64,000 nucleotides of DNA from Gammaproteobacteria bacterium (GTDB lineage: Bacteria; Pseudomonadota; Gammaproteobacteria; SZUA-229): assembly GCA_029881275.1 (NCBI GenBank), contig JAOUMX010000001.1:38949-102948 (forward strand), written 5' to 3'. The position numbers and the translations under genes are program-made. This document shows, one piece after another, positions 19,570-27,338 of the stretch. The notes under the pieces are model-generated. The model saw only the letters and a list, made by a program, of their open reading frames with translations. It made no database searches and was not told where the DNA came from. The number at the start of each line of letters is the position of its first letter. Position 1 is the stretch's first letter.

Positions 19570-21960
19570 TTAACTTTTAGACAATAATATTGTTTCATTG
19601 GTTTTACGCATTTTTGCGTAGGCGCATAATTTCCTCATTATCCGATCATTGAGGCTGTCTTTTACAAAGTTACCATCAGCCAGTTCTTCTCCAGCGGTGA
19701 ATCCTGTCAGGATTTCCAGCGCCTGTTCGTAGTGATTAACAGGGTAGATATGAAATTTTTTATTTTCTATGGCATCAATTACTTCTTTCTTTAATAGAAG
19801 ATTCATAACATTGATTTTCGGAATAATGCAGCCCTGGTCGCCGGTTAGGCCGCGTTGTTTGCAGATATCAAAAAAACCTTCAATCTTTTCGTTAACACCA
19901 CCAATTGCCTGTACATAACCCTGTTGATTGAGTGAGCCGGTCACTGCATATGACTGTTTTAAAGGAATATTGGTTAATGCTGAAATAAGGACGCAAAGTT
20001 CGGCTAATGAAGCGCTGTCGCCATCAATGCGGCCATATGATTGTTCGAAGGCAATACTGGCGGAAAAGGCTAATGGCGTATCTCTTGTATAGCGATTTGC
20101 CAGTAGCGCTGAAAGTATTAAAACACCCTTATCGTGTATTGAGCCACTTAAGTCAACTTCACGTTCTATATTAATGATAGAACCATCACCCAGGTGTACA
20201 GAGGCGGTTATTCTTGATGGTTGTCCAAAACTAAATTTACCAACTTCATATACTGAAAGGCCATTTATTTGTCCAATAGCACTACCATCTGTGTCAATCA
20301 GTAAGATGCCTCTTTGTATGTCTTTTTGAATTAATTTCTGTATTCTTTCTGTACGCTGAATCTGGGCATCAATTGCATGTTGAACGTCATCATAGGTTAT
20401 ATACTGATGATCTGATTGCATTGCCCAGTATTGGGTTTCAATAAGTAAATCATCAATCGTTCTCAGACGTGTTGACAATGTTTCCGTATTATTTGCAATG
20501 CGGGAACTAAATTCTATTAATCTGGCAACAGCACCTGCTTCAAGATCTCTTAAGTTATGCTTTCTGGCTCTTGATGCAATCAGTCTTGCATAGAGTAGTG
20601 TGTTGTCTTCGTCTCTATCCATTTCTTCATCAAAATCTGCTTCAACTTTAAAGAGTTCAGCAAAGTCTGGATCCATATCATGTAATATGTAATAGGTGAG
20701 TCGGTTACCCAGTAAAATAACTTTAATTCTGAGAGGGATGGGTTCTGGTTCCAGTGTTATGGTGGTGTCGTTATTGAGCACCTGATCCAGTGACTCTATT
20801 TTAACTTTTTTGGCATAGAGTGATCTTTTTAATGCCTCCCACGCATGAGGCATGCTGAGTATTTTGTGTGCGTCGATAACAATGTATCCACCATTTGCAT
20901 CAAGTAATGCACCTGATTTAATCAGCATGAAATTTGTGGAAGAGCCAGATGATCGATTTTCGTATTCAATTCTACCGATCAAATTGTGGTATGTTGGGTT
21001 GTCCAGGTAAATGACGGGTGCGCCATTCTTCTTGCTGCTATCAACAATCAGATTTACCTGGTAACGTATTAACGCGTTATCTTTTTTATTTGAATCGGAT
21101 GATTCTTCATCTTCTCCTTCGAGAAAGAACTCAAGATGATCAAGGACGTCTTCCTGTACAGATTTTAAATAGTTTGCAATATGACGGAATGCTTTATAAC
21201 GACGTTTTACATCTTTAATTAAATTACTTGTCGCAAAAAGGGCAACTTTACGATTTAATTTATTTAGTTTGATATTGTTTTCACGTCTTTGTCTTGATAT
21301 TTCCGGAATTAGATAATCGAGTTCGTTTTGAAAGTTTTCGATTTTGCTGTCAATAACTTCTTTCTCATCCTCTGGTAGAGCCTCGTACTCTTGTTCGGAT
21401 AATTCAACTCCATTTTTCATCGGCATCAACATAAAGCCAGAGGAAGTCTGGCTGAGCATAATATTTTGACTTTGTGCTCTTTCGACATGTTTATCAATTA
21501 AGGACGACTGTTTTTTAGTAAATATCTTCTCAATCTGTTGTACCTGATCCTGGTACTCAGTTGCTTCAAAGGCTGCGTTAATGGCTTTGCTCAGATCTTC
21601 GACCAGGTTTTTCATGTCTTTTTGGAATAGCTTTCCCTGACCGGCAGGTAATTTCAGGGCGTAAGGTTTGTAATCCTGCTCGAAATTACGTACATAGCAC
21701 CAGTCAGAGGGGACTTCTTCATCGGCGGCTTTACGCGTCAGATATTTACGGATAATTCCATGTTTACCCAGTCCTGATGGTCCCATAACATACAGGTTAT
21801 AACCTCTATGATGGACACCTATCCCGAACTCAACGGCCTTAAGTGCGCGATCCTGTCCAACTATACCGACAGGATCTTCCAGTTCCGCTGTTGTTTTGAA
21901 AGGTAATGATTCGGCGGTACATGCAGGCCGTAGCTGTTTGGCTGTTAGTGACTTAATCAT
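19570..21960 (-). CDS. Lon-like (LonB/LonC-type, COG1067) protease: N-terminal AAA+-like module with non-canonical Walker motifs plus C-terminal S16 Lon protease domain
   Basis: 796 aa. P-loop-like 'GPSGLGKH' has His where Ser/Thr is expected. Walker-B-like 'GGYIVIDAHKI' has DA where DE is expected. Lon catalytic dyad context 'RIDGDSASLAELCVLISAL' (Ser) and 'GGVNEKIEGF' (Lys). Confidence 0.8.
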   Translation of the reverse strand: MIKSLTAKQLRPACTAESLPFKTTAELEDPVGIVGQDRALKAVEFGIGVHHRGYNLYVMGPSGLGKHGIIRKYLTRKAADEEVPSDWCYVRNFEQDYKPYALKLPAGQGKLFQKDMKNLVEDLSKAINAAFEATEYQDQVQQIEKIFTKKQSSLIDKHVERAQSQNIMLSQTSSGFMLMPMKNGVELSEQEYEALPEDEKEVIDSKIENFQNELDYLIPEISRQRRENNIKLNKLNRKVALFATSNLIKDVKRRYKAFRHIANYLKSVQEDVLDHLEFFLEGEDEESSDSNKKDNALIRYQVNLIVDSSKKNGAPVIYLDNPTYHNLIGRIEYENRSSGSSTNFMLIKSGALLDANGGYIVIDAHKILSMPHAWEALKRSLYAKKVKIESLDQVLNNDTTITLEPEPIPLRIKVILLGNRLTYYILHDMDPDFAELFKVEADFDEEMDRDEDNTLLYARLIASRARKHNLRDLEAGAVARLIEFSSRIANNTETLSTRLRTIDDLLIETQYWAMQSDHQYITYDDVQHAIDAQIQRTERIQKLIQKDIQRGILLIDTDGSAIGQINGLSVYEVGKFSFGQPSRITASVHLGDGSIINIEREVDLSGSIHDKGVLILSALLANRYTRDTPLAFSASIAFEQSYGRIDGDSASLAELCVLISALTNIPLKQSYAVTGSLNQQGYVQAIGGVNEKIEGFFDICKQRGLTGDQGCIIPKINVMNLLLKKEVIDAIENKKFHIYPVNHYEQALEILTGFTAGEELADGNFVKDSLNDRIMRKLCAYAKMRKTNETILLSKS

Positions 21961-22061
21961 TGTAATTTATAATTTTAATATTCTATTCAATGGTGTTATT
22001 TTGGCACAAAATACCTGTCTCAAGTACAATTGAGGCAAAATAATTACAATTGGATCAGTAT

Positions 22062-24995
22062 ATGACCGTAGTGGCTTTAAAACCCGAAAAAATACACCCG
22101 TCATTTGAATGGCTTCGTAGTGAGCCAGTTGAATCTTTAAACCTTGTTGTCGAGGAATACCGGCACATTAAAACCGGGGCCTTGTATTATCATCTTTCTG
22201 CGGATAATACGGAAAATGTTTTTCTTGTTGCCTTACGAACAGTGCCTTTTGATTCTACGGGTGTTGCTCATATTCTTGAGCATACAGTTTTGTGTGGTAG
22301 TGAGCATTATCCTGTTCGTGATCCGTTTTTTATGATGATCCGCCGCTCATTGAATACCTTTATGAATGCCTTCACCAGTAGTGACTGGACGGCTTACCCG
22401 TTTGCCAGCCAGAATTTTAAGGATTTTAATAATCTTCTGGATGTTTATCTTGATGCGGTATTTTTTTCCAGGCTGGATAAACTCGATTTTGCTCAGGAAG
22501 GGCATAGATACGAATTTGAAAAAGCAGATGACCCTTCTTCTAATCTGACTTATAAAGGTGTCGTTTTTAATGAAATGAAAGGCGCTATGAGTTCTGCTGT
22601 CAGTACATTATGGCAAACCTTAACGGAACATCTCTATCCAACAACCACCTATCACTATAATAGCGGTGGTGAACCGGTCAATATTCCGGATCTGAGTTAT
22701 GATGAGCTGATTGCCTTTTATAAAAAACATTATCATCCATCAAATGCAGTTTTTATGACATTTGGAAATATTCCCGCCTATGAGCATCAGCAAAAGTTTG
22801 AAGACCGCGCACTATCCAGTTTCGATCGCCTGAATGAGGAGATAAGTGTTGCCAAAGAAAAGCGCTATACAAACCCCGTCTCTGTGGCAGATACCTATGC
22901 GTCTGATGAAGAAGATATCAATCATAAAACCCATATTGTTATAGGTTGGTTGCTGGGCGAAAGTACTTCATTGCTGGATATGTTACGAGCTCATCTTATG
23001 TCCAGTGTTCTACTTGAAAATAGTGCATCACCATTACGTTACGCACTTGAACGAACAGATCTTGGTACGGCGCCTTCACCATTATGTGGCCTCGAAGACT
23101 CTAATCGTGAAATGTGTTTTATGTGTGGCGTAGAAGGATCGAATCCGGAACATAATCTTGCTGTTGAGGAACTGGTTTTATCCACATTACGTGAAGTGGC
23201 CGAAAAAGGGGTTCCTCTTGATCGTTTAGAGGCCGTATTGCATCAACTTGAATTGGGGCAAAGAGAAGTGGGTGGCGATGGTTACCCTTATGGTTTGCAG
23301 CTAATTCTAAATGGACTCTCCGCCGCCATTCATCGTGGTGACCCTGTGGCTGTATTAAACCTGGATCCGGTACTTGAACAACTCAGGCTGGATATTCAGG
23401 ATCCGAATTTCATCAGAAATCTGGTTAAGGATAGTCTGCTTGATAATCCCCATCGGGTTACTCTGACTATGAAACCCGATCCTGAACTGAGTCAAAAGCA
23501 GGATAAGGATGAAGCAGAAAAACTGGCATCAATTAAGGAACAGCTGTCAGCGGATGATATCGATAATATTGTCACTACTGCGGCAAAACTGGTAGAGAGA
23601 CAGAATTCAGAAGATGATCCTGATGTACTGCCAAAAGTGGGATTGCAGGATATCCCTGCTGAACTTTATGTGCCAGAAGGATCAACTGAAGACATTAACA
23701 ATACACCTGTTAATTATTACCAGCAGGGTACTAATGGCCTTGTCTATCAGCAGGTTATTATCAATCTGCCTGCGCTGGATCATGATTTACTCGATGTGCT
23801 GCCATACTATACTTTTTGTCTGACAGAGCTGGGCTGTGCAAATCAGGATTATCTGGCGGTTCAGGACTGGCAATCAAGGGTTAGCGGCGGTGTAAATGCT
23901 TATACGGGTATGCGTGGCAAAATTGATAATGTGCAGTCTGTTAAAGGGCATTTTGTATTATCTGCAAAAGCGCTGGCTAGAAATCATACCGAATTAAACA
24001 AATTGATGCAGCAAACACTGGAGCAGGTTCGGTTTGATGAATATGAGCGTATTCGAGAACTGATTTCACAGAAAAGGGCTCGACAGGAACAAAGCATCAC
24101 GGGTAATGGTCATGGTCTGGCAATGCTGGCAGCCAGCAGTGGTATGAGTCCTGTTTCGGCGCTGACCCACAGACTTGACGGTCTGGCAGGTATTAAATTT
24201 ATTAAACAGCTGGATGATGATTTAGATGATCGGTCTAATCTGGTTAATCTGGCGGAGAAGTTTCAGCGCATACATAACAAGGTTCTCGCTTCATCACGGC
24301 AATTTTTAGTAATCGCAGAAGACGATATGAAAACACCTTTGGTAAATGACATTGCCACTATATGGCCGTCGGTCGAGCAAAACAGGATTGATCAGTTTGT
24401 ATTACCAGAAGTTAGTGAGCAGGTTAAACAGGCATGGATTACCAGTACACAGGTTAATTTTTGTGCAAAAGCATACCAGACGGTACCTGTAGAACACGAT
24501 GATGCGCCCGCGTTAGCCGTGCTGGGTGGTTTTTTGCGTAATGGCTTTTTACATCGAGCTGTCCGTGAGCAGGGTGGAGCCTATGGCGGCGGTGCCAGTC
24601 ATGATTCGGCAAATGCCTGTTTTAGATTTTATTCTTATCGTGATCCACGTTTAACGCAGACCTTCAGTGATTTTGATCAATCTGTAGACTGGTTATTAAG
24701 CCATAATCATGAGTATCGTCAATTGGAGGAAGCCATACTTGGTGTTATTAGTAACATGGATAAACCAGGATCACCTGCAGGTGAGGCAAAGCAGGCTTTT
24801 CATAATGATTTGTATGGTCGTAGTAAAGAACAGAGACAGCGATTCAGGCAAAAAGTCATAAAGGTCACTGTTGAGGATCTTAAGCGTGTGGGGCAAACCT
24901 ATTTAAAATCAAGTAATGCGAGCATCGCTGTGGTGACAAATAAAACACACGAAAATGAAATAAAAGATCTGGGTATGGAGATTATTAAACTTTAA
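22062..24995 (+). CDS. M16C-family zinc metallopeptidase (presequence protease PreP-like, insulinase superfamily)
   Basis: About 977 aa. Inverted zinc motif 'HILEHTVLCGSEHYPVRDPFFMMIRRSLNTFMNAFTSSDWTAYPF' closely parallels PreP. No signal peptide. Start ATG 22062 (the track start 22050 is TTG). Confidence 0.85.
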   Translation: MTVVALKPEKIHPSFEWLRSEPVESLNLVVEEYRHIKTGALYYHLSADNTENVFLVALRTVPFDSTGVAHILEHTVLCGSEHYPVRDPFFMMIRRSLNTFMNAFTSSDWTAYPFASQNFKDFNNLLDVYLDAVFFSRLDKLDFAQEGHRYEFEKADDPSSNLTYKGVVFNEMKGAMSSAVSTLWQTLTEHLYPTTTYHYNSGGEPVNIPDLSYDELIAFYKKHYHPSNAVFMTFGNIPAYEHQQKFEDRALSSFDRLNEEISVAKEKRYTNPVSVADTYASDEEDINHKTHIVIGWLLGESTSLLDMLRAHLMSSVLLENSASPLRYALERTDLGTAPSPLCGLEDSNREMCFMCGVEGSNPEHNLAVEELVLSTLREVAEKGVPLDRLEAVLHQLELGQREVGGDGYPYGLQLILNGLSAAIHRGDPVAVLNLDPVLEQLRLDIQDPNFIRNLVKDSLLDNPHRVTLTMKPDPELSQKQDKDEAEKLASIKEQLSADDIDNIVTTAAKLVERQNSEDDPDVLPKVGLQDIPAELYVPEGSTEDINNTPVNYYQQGTNGLVYQQVIINLPALDHDLLDVLPYYTFCLTELGCANQDYLAVQDWQSRVSGGVNAYTGMRGKIDNVQSVKGHFVLSAKALARNHTELNKLMQQTLEQVRFDEYERIRELISQKRARQEQSITGNGHGLAMLAASSGMSPVSALTHRLDGLAGIKFIKQLDDDLDDRSNLVNLAEKFQRIHNKVLASSRQFLVIAEDDMKTPLVNDIATIWPSVEQNRIDQFVLPEVSEQVKQAWITSTQVNFCAKAYQTVPVEHDDAPALAVLGGFLRNGFLHRAVREQGGAYGGGASHDSANACFRFYSYRDPRLTQTFSDFDQSVDWLLSHNHEYRQLEEAILGVISNMDKPGSPAGEAKQAFHNDLYGRSKEQRQRFRQKVIKVTVEDLKRVGQTYLKSSNASIAVVTNKTHENEIKDLGMEIIKL

Positions 24996-25065
24996 TTATT
25001 CTATTTTGCTTTCAGGGATGAAAGCGGGTGGGGTGTCTCTGCATTTTTTTATATCTTATCTATAA

Positions 25066-25268: not shown

Positions 25269-25565
25269 ATGGTTAATGCAGGTGCTCACGTTATATTAAT
25301 GTTATTCGAATTGCGTATTAGCTATGTGCAATCTCTCAAGGATAAGAGACGGGTTATAAAAGGATTGAAGGATCGTTTATCCAGTCGATTTAATATTTCA
25401 ATTGCTGAACTGGGTGAACTTGATAACTGGAATATGGCCATTCTTGGTGTAGCGATGATTGGTAATGACAGAAAATATCTTCAAACGCAGGCCAGCTATA
25501 TTGAAACATTAATACTGGAAGTAAAAGATATTGAGTTAATAGCAGTTTCAAAGGAGTGGTTGTAA
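25269..25565 (+). CDS. DUF503 (YlxP-like) small protein
   Basis: 98 aa with 'LMLFELRISYVQSLKDKRRVIKGLKDRLSSRFNISIAEL', matching the DUF503 core. Confidence 0.6.
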   Translation: MVNAGAHVILMLFELRISYVQSLKDKRRVIKGLKDRLSSRFNISIAELGELDNWNMAILGVAMIGNDRKYLQTQASYIETLILEVKDIELIAVSKEWL

Positions 25566-26128: not shown

Positions 26129-26320
26129 CTATTTGCGTTTCTCATAAACAGCCATAATAGCTTTTAATTCTTTTAGTAATGCCATCAGTTCATCATAAGA
26201 GAGATGTACTGTGTGTTCTGTTGTTTCTCCATTCTCCAATGCATTAATGATTCCGGATACAGAAGTACAACCCTGTAAACATATGGTTTCAACAGCTTTT
26301 GATATATTATCTGTGTTCAT
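26129..26320 (-). CDS. Hypothetical small Cys-containing protein
   Basis: ATG at 26320 gives a 63-aa protein 'MNTDNISKAVETICLQGCTSV...'. It overlaps the upstream thioredoxin-like gene stop by 14 nt. No family recognised. Confidence 0.3.
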   Translation of the reverse strand: MNTDNISKAVETICLQGCTSVSGIINALENGETTEHTVHLSYDELMALLKELKAIMAVYEKRK

Positions 26321-27338
26321 GAGTTTTTCTATCACGCCAGAGCTGGAATGTGGGATAGGATTTATATCCCTCATCCAGAACATATTCTAAAATATTCTTT
26401 AAACGATTAAATTTTACTACAGATTCAATGCGAATTATCTCTTTTCCGTTATTGTCAAAAAATATGATGCTAGGTGCAAAGCTAAGTTGTAGTGTTTCAG
26501 CCCATGATTTATTGGTGGTTTTGATGCCCAGGGGTGTAATGACGTTAGCGCTTGATGTGGTATCAATCTGTATGACCCTCATTTTCATTAATCTATCAAT
26601 GATTTCTGATTCATTCATGGGGCCGGCATGTAAAACATCACAGGCATGACATTTAGGGTGTTCAAAGAAAACCGCTAATGGTTTATTCGCGGGCTGTTGT
26701 TGTCTATTTAGATCGGTAATCGACTGTTTTAATTCAAAAACATCATTATCATTCAATTCATCCTGGCCAAAACTCATGGCTTCTTCTGCCCGTGCCAGAT
26801 ATTGTCTGAAATTTTCCTTCTTGTAATGTCCATCACTGACGTACTCAAGTGCTGCTCTGAACTGATAGGGTGGGCGATAACCATAAAGTTGTAGAGCTGG
26901 CTGTCCTTGTTTATCAAAGAATAAAAATGAAGGGGTAAAATTCGTTTTCATTTTAGCAGCGTATTCATCTTCACTGTATGTATCACCATTGAAATCAGTT
27001 ACTGTTCTTTGCCCCCTGACATCAATGGCTATTACATCAAAATGTTGTTTTGTGTAATCAACAATATCTGCCATGCCCCAGTTGATTGTGAGCTGAGCTT
27101 TGCAATATGCGCAATTTTTACGTTCAAAGTAAATGATTAATCCATGATTATTTGATTTTGCTTCATCAATGCTGTCCTGTAAGTCGAGGAAACTTAATTT
27201 GAACCAGTCAGGTAAAATTAAATGATGTTGTAAAGAGGCGTCATCAAAGTCCAGAGAGCTGTCATTTGTTGATGCATACAAATCATGTGAAAAAAATGAA
27301 ATGAATATGACAAAATATGTGATTACGTGCCTGAACAT
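26307..27338 (-). CDS. Secreted protein with two thioredoxin-like domains (CxxC 'CAYC' and 'CHAC')
   Basis: Signal peptide 'MFRHVITYFVIFISFFSHDLYAS'. Two repeats each carrying a CxxC motif in thioredoxin-like context ('IYFERKNCAYCKAQ' and 'VFFEHPKCHACDVL'). Confidence 0.7.
   Translation of the reverse strand: MFRHVITYFVIFISFFSHDLYASTNDSSLDFDDASLQHHLILPDWFKLSFLDLQDSIDEAKSNNHGLIIYFERKNCAYCKAQLTINWGMADIVDYTKQHFDVIAIDVRGQRTVTDFNGDTYSEDEYAAKMKTNFTPSFLFFDKQGQPALQLYGYRPPYQFRAALEYVSDGHYKKENFRQYLARAEEAMSFGQDELNDNDVFELKQSITDLNRQQQPANKPLAVFFEHPKCHACDVLHAGPMNESEIIDRLMKMRVIQIDTTSSANVITPLGIKTTNKSWAETLQLSFAPSIIFFDNNGKEIIRIESVVKFNRLKNILEYVLDEGYKSYPTFQLWRDRKTHEHR

Follow-up and report, generated by a model that had tools for sequence, protein, structure and literature searches.

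The closest described relatives of the Lon-like protein considered here are the LonC-type proteases MtaLonC from Meiothermus taiwanensis and TTC1975 from Thermus thermophilus (PDB 4fw9, 4fwd, 7euy, 8k8v). The motifs GPPSLGKHE and GYLILDA of MtaLonC, together with the absence of ATPase activity, were published in 2012 as the hallmark of LonC, in a study in which LonB was the sister group and the physiological role of LonC was still unknown (PMC3391209). A dual role as protease and chaperone has since been described for a LonC-type enzyme (PMC13069640). LonB, exemplified by the archaeal protein of Thermococcus onnurineus (PDB 3k1j), has canonical Walker A and B motifs, an active ATPase and a membrane anchor.

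Enzymes of the PreP family act on peptides of 10-65 residues, and in PreP structures Arg and Tyr residues of the C-terminal half complete the active site. Structures are available for the human and Arabidopsis proteins (PDB 6xos, 4l3t, 2fge). PreP is present in 854 of 6,820 bacterial proteomes, where it is essentially uncharacterised (PMC9291397).

We analysed a window of 64,000 nucleotides in which genes for an enzyme of each kind are divergently arranged (Table 1). Both kinds, the LonC-type protease and the PreP-type metallopeptidase, are thus already described. The window belongs to a mesophilic marine or vent-type gammaproteobacterial MAG, whereas the hosts of MtaLonC and TTC1975 are thermophilic.

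Table 1. Predicted features of the LonC-PreP region, in window positions; the MtaLonC residue numbers S582 and K625 are those of PMC3391209.
Feature	Position	Strand	Remarks
LonC-subfamily Lon-like serine protease	19570-21960	-	796 aa, soluble, degenerate AAA-like module
LonC-specific insertion CKQRGLTG, residues 700-707	19840-19863	-	consensus CX3GLX[G/E] (PMC3391209)
GVNEKIEG with catalytic Lys692	19876-19899	-	aligns with MtaLonC AINAKVEG, K625
DGDSAS with catalytic Ser649	20008-20025	-	aligns with MtaLonC EGDSAG, catalytic S582
Walker B-like GGYIVIDA, residues 357-364	20869-20892	-	aligns with MtaLonC GGYLILDA
Long helical insertion, residues ~105-300	21061-21648	-	between Walker A-like and Walker B-like motifs
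Walker A-like P-loop GPSGLGKH, residues 60-67	21760-21783	-	His at canonical Ser/Thr position; aligns with MtaLonC GPPSLGKH
Divergent LonC/PreP spacer	21961-22061	.	101 bp up to ATG 22062; back-to-back promoter candidates
Candidate sigma-70-like PreP promoter TTGGCA-18-TACAAT	22001-22030	+	10/12 match
Bacterial PreP (M16C peptidasome)	22062-24995	+	977 aa, cytoplasmic; Pfam and human/Arabidopsis PreP matches
Inverted zinc motif HILEH (H70, E73, H74)	22269-22283	+	aligned with hPreP HILEH
FNEMKG with distal zinc-ligand Glu171	22566-22583	+	aligned with hPreP VVFNEMKGA
REQGGAYGGGA, C-terminal-half Arg/Tyr motif	24564-24596	+	aligned with hPreP REKGGAYGGGA
DUF503 gene	25269-25565	+	third member of the block DUF503-PreP<>LonC; Pfam DUF503

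The Lon-like protein and its motifs

The minus-strand protein matches the Pfam families LonC_helical, AAA_32, LonB_AAA-LID and Lon_C, and its closest solved structure is that of MtaLonC (4fwd, E 4e-89), in an alignment that pairs GPPSLGKH, GGYLILDA, GDSAG and NAKVEG with motifs of the window protein. This combination identifies it, at the level of sequence, as a member of the LonC subfamily, in agreement with the LonB/LonC-type layout noted in the original prediction, and the extent of the reading frame was confirmed. It has the same domain order as MtaLonC and TTC1975 and shares with them the patterns GP(P/S)xLGKH and GGY(L/I)(I/V)(L/I)DA, the dyad context GDSA / N(E/A)K(I/V)EG and the CX3GLXG insertion; the alpha5 region (LLLKKEVIDAI, against LTLRAEVLEAV in MtaLonC) aligns without gaps. 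All are soluble proteins with a helical insertion. Neither a transmembrane segment nor a signal peptide was detected in the window protein (best Kyte-Doolittle 19-residue window 1.49). The AAA_32, LID and Lon_C core is also common to the archaeal LonB, which differs in its canonical motifs and membrane anchor.

One difference from MtaLonC lies in the helical insertion, where window residues 173-298 are left unmatched by the alignment and where the segment from the Walker A-like to the Walker B-like motif spans about 290 residues, as compared to about 245 in MtaLonC (counted by alignment positions). The distance of 290 residues falls within the range of 285-315 in the 93 sequences of our LonC family set, which were drawn from the Chloroflexota, Pseudomonadota, Chlorobiota, Planctomycetota and other phyla. 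The Pfam LonC_helical match covers residues 86-119, and an AlphaFold model predicts long helices at residues 109-164 and 197-277 (pLDDT about 80). This model was built from an alignment of eight sequences and is poor overall (pLDDT 53.6); in a Foldseek search with it, the top ten PDB matches were all to MtaLonC, with E-values down to 1.5e-28 but TM scores of only about 0.2. The order of the matches is in line with LonC, whereas no weight can be given to these TM scores, and the model is of too low quality to test the fold.

The motifs GPSGLGKH, GGYIVIDA, DGDSAS and GVNEKIEG, as well as HILEH in the neighbouring protein, had been singled out from the sequence before, and all were mapped by translation. 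It had also been envisaged that the degenerate motifs were artefacts of mis-alignment, but they are kept among the orthologues. The position that follows the P-loop Lys is taken by H, R, Y, Q or F in 76 of the 93 sequences (46, 9, 8, 7 and 6, respectively), so that His is the commonest residue at this position and occurs in about half of the family. The Walker B-like pair is more uniform: Asp is found in 81 and the following Ala in 82 of the 93 sequences, with V, I, M and T as the next most common residues after Ala. The window protein has Asp followed by Ala, where an active ATPase has Glu. At the protease site, the residues G, D, S, A and S of DGDSAS and the catalytic Lys are unchanged in all 93 sequences, and the LonC-specific insertion is nearly so (C in 93, G in 91, L in 90 and G in 90). 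The degenerate motifs agree with the LonC signature already in the literature, are kept throughout the family and are therefore not new.

Could the protein nevertheless be a still-active ATPase of the LonB or LonA type, the true Walker motifs of which have been overlooked? Binding of about one nucleotide per subunit persists in MtaLonC (PMC3391209), and Ser or Thr occupies the second position after the P-loop Lys in 54 of the 93 family members, although the window protein has Gly there. We nevertheless consider this reading very improbable, given the Ala of the Walker B-like motif, the lack of ATPase activity in the characterised LonC members (PMC3391209), the absence of a LonB-like transmembrane anchor and the fact that no LonA N-terminal domain was reported by Pfam. 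Membership in the canonical LonA, LonB and spore-Lon families was rejected on the basis of NCBIfam equivalog scores far below the cut-offs (for LonB, 151.7 as compared to 516.6 bits).

The PreP-type neighbour

The plus-strand protein yielded Pfam matches to Peptidase_M16, Peptidase_M16_C (two stretches), M16C_assoc and PreP_C and aligned to human PreP (6xos, E 4e-161) and Arabidopsis PreP (2fge, E 2.5e-147, spanning residues 20-957). It has the same full-length M16C architecture as these proteins, with four M16-type domains and the M16C_assoc hinge in one chain of about 1000 aa, and shares with them the HxxEH motif, the distal Glu located 101 residues beyond the first zinc-motif His and the C-terminal REK/QGGAYGGGA motif. 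By these criteria the predicted protein is a true bacterial PreP. No signal peptide or transmembrane segment was found (best Kyte-Doolittle 19-residue window 1.19), in agreement with the earlier description of a PreP-type enzyme that lacks an export signal. Unlike the human and Arabidopsis enzymes, it is bacterial, cytoplasmic and without an organellar targeting peptide, and its substrates can therefore not be presequences.

The open reading frame was called at 22050-24995 with a TTG start at 22050. Since the PreP homologues are 977-978 aa long, the true start is most likely the ATG at 22062. The divergent orientation of the two genes stands as first described, whereas the length of about 980 aa and the intergenic distance of 90 bp then given should probably be revised to 977 aa and 101 bp (89 bp if measured to the TTG).

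Gene neighbourhood and the divergent spacer

The original prediction had gone further and suggested a two-step cytoplasmic module, in which the Lon-like enzyme makes fragments that PreP clears under shared divergent control. There is some evidence in line with a dedicated, co-regulated module of this kind. The divergent pair was found in the window and in all six fetched loci with a LonC that is at least 67% identical (L001, L081, L082, L085, L096 and L097; 67-85% identity), that is in 7 of 7 loci of the clade despite differing outer flanks. The DUF503 gene also follows PreP in L081, L082, L096 and L097; in the window it is preceded by a terminator-like hairpin (25028-25042). Both the genes past DUF503 and those past LonC vary around the intact block, the latter being TPMT, a histone-deacetylase-family gene or an RND pump. 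An indirect count gave a similar picture: 32 of 49 clade LonC matches on contigs of at least 20 kb share the contig size with one of the top 120 PreP matches, and two cases unmatched in this count turned out to be linked on direct look-up. A metagenome scan with a single LonC query added little, since L085 alone among the six recovered loci was closely related and could be read on the PreP side. With regard to the products, MtaLonC yields 8-9-mers and an intermediate-size product from casein (PMC3391209), and larger fragments could suit PreP.

Beyond the clade the pairing is lost, from whichever side it is viewed. PreP was adjacent to LonC in none of the 79 loci with 41-49% identity, 62 of which had an upstream flank of at least 3.2 kb, and in none of the three loci with 57% identity (L083, L084 and L098). 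Conversely, LonC was not adjacent to PreP in any of five PreP loci with 63-65% identity (L091-L095). The PreP orthologues are of near-equal divergence with and without LonC (65-67% and 63-65% identity, respectively), which speaks against a dedicated module. We also clustered all open reading frames of 98 loci, disregarding shadow reading frames that overlap LonC, and found no conserved partner gene for LonC in the 79 diverse loci; the largest cluster was a generic ABC ATPase in 14 of the 79. The recurrent clusters were all generic (ABC ATPase, acyl-CoA synthetase, response regulator, TPR). The proposed linkage thus holds for the near relatives and fails outside them, and the adjacency of LonC and PreP with DUF503 downstream looks like lineage-specific synteny in one gammaproteobacterial clade rather than an operon-like module of wide occurrence. 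Within this clade, DUF503-PreP<>LonC outlasts the neighbouring junctions, which could reflect selection for co-regulation.

The spacer provides little support for shared control. Across the related loci it is between 90 and 356 bp long, and the sole conserved element in the alignment of six spacers is the invariant ATTGTA, the reverse complement of the -10 hexamer TACAAT of the candidate PreP promoter. Because of this variation in length and the conservation of the PreP -10 box only, the data argue for separate promoters of the two genes rather than one shared control element, and the notion of a shared divergent promoter was not borne out. Nor did heat-shock promoters of the sigma-32 type rise above shuffled controls in the spacers of seven loci, and neither gene encodes a regulator. 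No structured RNA in the region matched Rfam at the gathering score, and no tRNA was found in the whole window. Taken together, a dedicated LonC-PreP proteolytic module is weakly supported at best, and we regard the two-step reading as unlikely.

Another potential context is anti-phage defence, since BrxL of the BREX system also has a Lon-like domain. The resemblance of BrxL to LonC would concern the Lon-like protease-fold region only. Neither protein matched a PADLOC model, at E-values up to 0.01, and brx, pgl and other defence-type domains were absent from the ten neighbouring genes scanned, consistent with what had been noted from the sequence alone. The neighbours in the window have housekeeping functions (rpsA, lapB, pyrF, TPMT, AFG1 and pyrG), and the protein is orthologous to the widespread stand-alone LonC. 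That it serves as a BrxL-like defence component is therefore extremely improbable.

Interpretation and annotation

We consider it likely that the locus contains two independent, well-known housekeeping proteostasis genes in lineage-specific synteny. LonC combines a Lon S16 protease domain, with its Ser-Lys dyad, and a degenerate AAA-like module into which a large helical segment is inserted. If it behaves like the characterised Meiothermus and Thermus enzymes, it should form rings (hexamers or heptamers) that possibly bind nucleotide without hydrolysing ATP, should cut only unfolded or damaged polypeptides able to thread into the chamber and may, at high temperature, serve as a holdase as well. 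PreP, a putative clam-shell M16C zinc peptidase, would enclose and destroy oligopeptides in the cytoplasm, and the two genes would be transcribed from separate back-to-back promoters. PreP may well remove the products of LonC, though no more specifically than any cytoplasmic oligopeptidase removes those of any chambered protease. Our data show to which families the proteins belong, that the motifs are conserved and how far the linkage extends, whereas the ATP independence of LonC, its substrate class and any hand-over of peptides to PreP are inferred.

A more far-reaching hypothesis is that selection has kept the block DUF503-PreP<>LonC in one clade of marine, vent and symbiont-related Gammaproteobacteria, with LonC as an energy-free shredder of unfolded proteins and PreP as its dedicated peptide-clearing partner. 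We find this unlikely; if true, it would for the first time place bacterial PreP and the LonC subfamily, a functional orphan, in a physiological setting. As the association does not extend beyond a single lineage, it allows no general functional prediction, and the clade-restricted linkage represents a small lead on the physiological roles of the two enzymes. The main use of our findings is in annotation, for which ATP-independent LonC-type protease, by analogy, and bacterial PreP appear to be better names. In current databases, the LonC protein is named “AAA family ATPase” (NCBI) and its close relatives “lon-related putative ATP-dependent protease” (JGI).

Identity of the two divergent proteins

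The two long divergent open reading frames were found at exactly the coordinates claimed in the original prediction, and all of the motifs quoted there were recovered from the window proteins, their coordinates being assigned through translation. Judged by its sequence, the minus-strand protein is a member of the LonC subfamily. It contains the Pfam domains LonC_helical, AAA_32 (LonB-like AAA), LonB_AAA-LID and Lon_C, and its closest solved structure is LonC from Meiothermus taiwanensis (MtaLonC) or Thermus thermophilus (TTC1975) (4fwd, 7euy, 8k8v and others; E 4e-89), the archaeal LonB (3k1j) being a much weaker match (E 1e-23). Membership in the LonB, LonA and sporulation Lon families was rejected because the NCBIfam equivalog scores were far below the cut-offs. 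The assignment relies on sequence, as the fold comparison gave no clear answer: the AlphaFold model, built with eight close homologues as input, was poor overall (pLDDT 53.6), with confident long helices and a small beta-hairpin in the helical insert, and the top ten Foldseek matches in the PDB were all MtaLonC, yet with TM-scores of about 0.2. An NCBI entry 100% identical to the protein ("MAG: Gammaproteobacteria bacterium") is named AAA family ATPase; relatives were recovered from hydrothermal-vent metagenomes and from a siboglinid endosymbiont.

Features of the LonC/PreP locus and of related loci (L-numbers)
Feature	Position	Strand	Remark
LonC ORF	19570-21960	-	796 aa, ATG start
GPSGLGKH, Walker A-like	LonC residues 60-67	-	pairs with MtaLonC GPPSLGKH
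GGYIVIDA, Walker B-like	LonC residues 357-364	-	pairs with MtaLonC GGYLILDA
DGDSAS, Ser649	LonC residues 646-651	-	GDSAS pairs with MtaLonC GDSAG
GVNEKIEG, Lys692	LonC residues 688-695	-	GVNEKIEGFF pairs with MtaLonC AINAKVEGFF
CKQRGLTG, LonC-specific insertion	LonC residues 700-707	-	consensus CX3GLX(G/E)
Sigma-70-like PreP promoter candidate	22001-22030	+	TTGGCA-18-TACAAT
PreP ORF	22050-24995 as first read	+	TTG 22050 or ATG 22062 start
HILEH, zinc site (H70, E73, H74)	PreP residues 70-74	+	kept relative to human PreP
FNEMKG, distal Glu171	PreP	+	101 residues past first His, as in human PreP
REQGGAYGGGA, C-terminal motif	PreP	+	conserved relative to human PreP
DUF503 gene	25269-25565	+	next after PreP
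DUF503 after PreP	L081 4406-4696; L082 4524-4805		linked clade
DUF503 after PreP	L096 2273-2554; L097 2089-2274		linked clade

LonC was defined by Liao et al. (2012; PMC3391209) as having degenerate Walker A-like (GPPSLGKHE) and Walker B-like (GYLILDA) motifs, two LonC-specific insertions, one with the consensus in the table, and no ATPase activity; degradation is ATP- and Mg-independent, and unfolded substrates are cut while folded ones are not. A cryo-EM study of 2024 then described dual protease and chaperone function, with rings of six or seven subunits (PMC13069640). The Walker A-like, Walker B-like, Ser and Lys contexts all align between MtaLonC and the window protein. In an alignment of 93 sequences (92 loci and the window protein) from Chloroflexota, Alpha-, Beta- and Gammaproteobacteria, Chlorobiota, Planctomycetota, Acidobacteriota and others, the P-loop glycines are almost invariant, the Lys position holds K in 70 sequences and R in 21, and the canonical Ser/Thr position is occupied by H (46), R (9), Y (8), Q (7) or F (6). 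The Walker B-like Asp is kept in 81 sequences and followed by Ala in 82, and Ser649, Lys692 and Cys700 are invariant (93/93). The segment between the Walker-like motifs is a large helical insertion of 285-315 residues across the family (290 in the window). The motifs had thus been aligned correctly in the original prediction, and their degeneracy, kept across the family, is a standard hallmark of an already published subfamily rather than a novel variation. In 54/93 sequences a Thr or Ser stands two positions past the P-loop Lys ("GK-x-[ST]" register), where the window protein carries Gly (residue 68; 21757-21759) and MtaLonC Glu. Such a shifted hydroxyl might contribute to nucleotide or phosphate binding of the kind reported for MtaLonC.

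The plus-strand protein is a PreP, as its domains (Peptidase_M16, Peptidase_M16_C, M16C_assoc, PreP_C), its matches to human PreP (E 4e-161) and Arabidopsis PreP (E 2.5e-147 over residues 20-957) and its intact catalytic motifs indicate, in agreement with the M16C identity first proposed. Signal peptides and membrane segments are absent from LonC and PreP (maximum Kyte-Doolittle 19-residue windows of 1.49 and 1.19, respectively). Bacterial PreP homologues occur in 854 of 6,820 bacterial proteomes, those of Proteobacteria being sister to the mitochondrial clade (PMC9291397).

Spacer and predicted promoters

Close homologues of PreP are 977-978 aa long, which makes ATG 22062 rather than TTG 22050 the most likely start, and the LonC/PreP spacer is therefore 101 bp. 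Across the clade, defined as gammaproteobacterial loci with LonC at least 67% identical to the window protein, the spacer measures 90-356 bp. In an alignment of six spacers ATTGTA is the sole invariant element; its reverse complement, TACAAT, is the -10 hexamer of the predicted PreP promoter. Because the spacer varies in length, the PreP -10 box alone is invariant, the LonC-proximal part is not conserved, and the spacers yielded no sigma-32-type promoter over shuffled controls and no Rfam match, the region agrees better with one promoter per gene, arranged back to back, than with a shared operator.

Distribution of the pairing

The original prediction made conservation of the neighbour its own test, and the outcome was divided. 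PreP adjoins LonC divergently in six close-clade loci: L001 (LonC 69-70% identical), L081 (76%), L082 (70%), L085 (85%), L096 (70%) and L097 (67%). By an indirect count, 32/49 clade LonC matches from contigs 20 kb or longer have a same-sized contig among the best 120 PreP matches, as against 0/19 for LonC at 55-58% identity; two unmatched clade cases proved to be linked on direct look-up. However, where LonC is 41-49% identical (79 species-level genome loci, 62 of them with 3.2 kb or more of upstream sequence, median 7.9 kb), the fetched flanks contained no PreP relative, three loci with LonC at 57% carry a SAM-methyltransferase gene where PreP would be, and LonC is absent beside PreP in all five loci with PreP at 63-65% identity (L091-L095). 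PreP identity is almost equal with and without LonC (65-67% linked, 63-65% unlinked), and clustering of all flanking ORFs revealed no gene type that consistently adjoins LonC.

The genomic evidence thus favors no special partnership outside one lineage, and we consider genuine co-selection an improbable explanation for the clade-restricted block. The presence of a double Thioredoxin_2 protein near LonC both in the window and in the 57% loci suggests residual synteny and a local rearrangement that placed PreP beside LonC. The window copy (26307-27338, minus strand) lies 1.3 kb past PreP; in L083 (2663-7875), L084 (1903-7115) and L098 (3209-5886) it is found with an FKBP gene a few kb from LonC, whose divergent neighbour is a class-I SAM methyltransferase. 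The only close-range recurrent LonC neighbour seen outside the PreP clade is a phosphoribosyltransferase-like ORF directly upstream in 7/79 diverse loci (L026 7097-7957 and six others).

By analogy with their families, LonC would form a chambered ring in which the degenerate AAA-like tier could not drive unfolding, so that unfolded or damaged chains alone would enter the chamber and be cut at Ser649/Lys692, and PreP would enclose oligopeptides and degrade them at its HxxEH zinc site. PreP may also clear the peptides that LonC releases: MtaLonC cuts casein into 8-9-mers and an intermediate-size fragment (PMC3391209). Such clearance is the generic relation of any oligopeptidase to any chambered protease. 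Of the earlier interpretation, the family assignment and motif degeneracy stand, both already published, whereas the two-step "module" is weak.

Neighbouring genes

The pair is surrounded by core genes: rpsA, lapB, pyrF, a ComEA-like HhH protein and TPMT on the LonC side, and DUF503, a SixA-like histidine phosphatase, the double thioredoxin-like protein, AFG1/ZapE and pyrG on the PreP side. Neither protein matched a defence model, and the whole 64-kb window holds no tRNA genes and no Rfam families at gathering score. A terminator-like hairpin (25028-25042) lies between PreP and DUF503, and DUF503 does not follow PreP in L091-L095. The gene past LonC varies within the clade: the window has TPMT, L081 has a histone-deacetylase-family gene, and L082, L096 and L097 carry an RND efflux pump. 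The genes past DUF503 vary too.

Downstream of LonC in L081 (11801-18403) is a mobile/toxin island, absent from the window, with a Y1 transposase, an Xre/ParS-type antitoxin-like gene, a trypsin-like protease and an RHS/YD-shell toxin with a Sel1 protein. In L093 (2389-5542) and L094 (26-3179), the LonC-less PreP orthologue has a tandem pair of reverse-transcriptase (RVT_1) genes immediately upstream.
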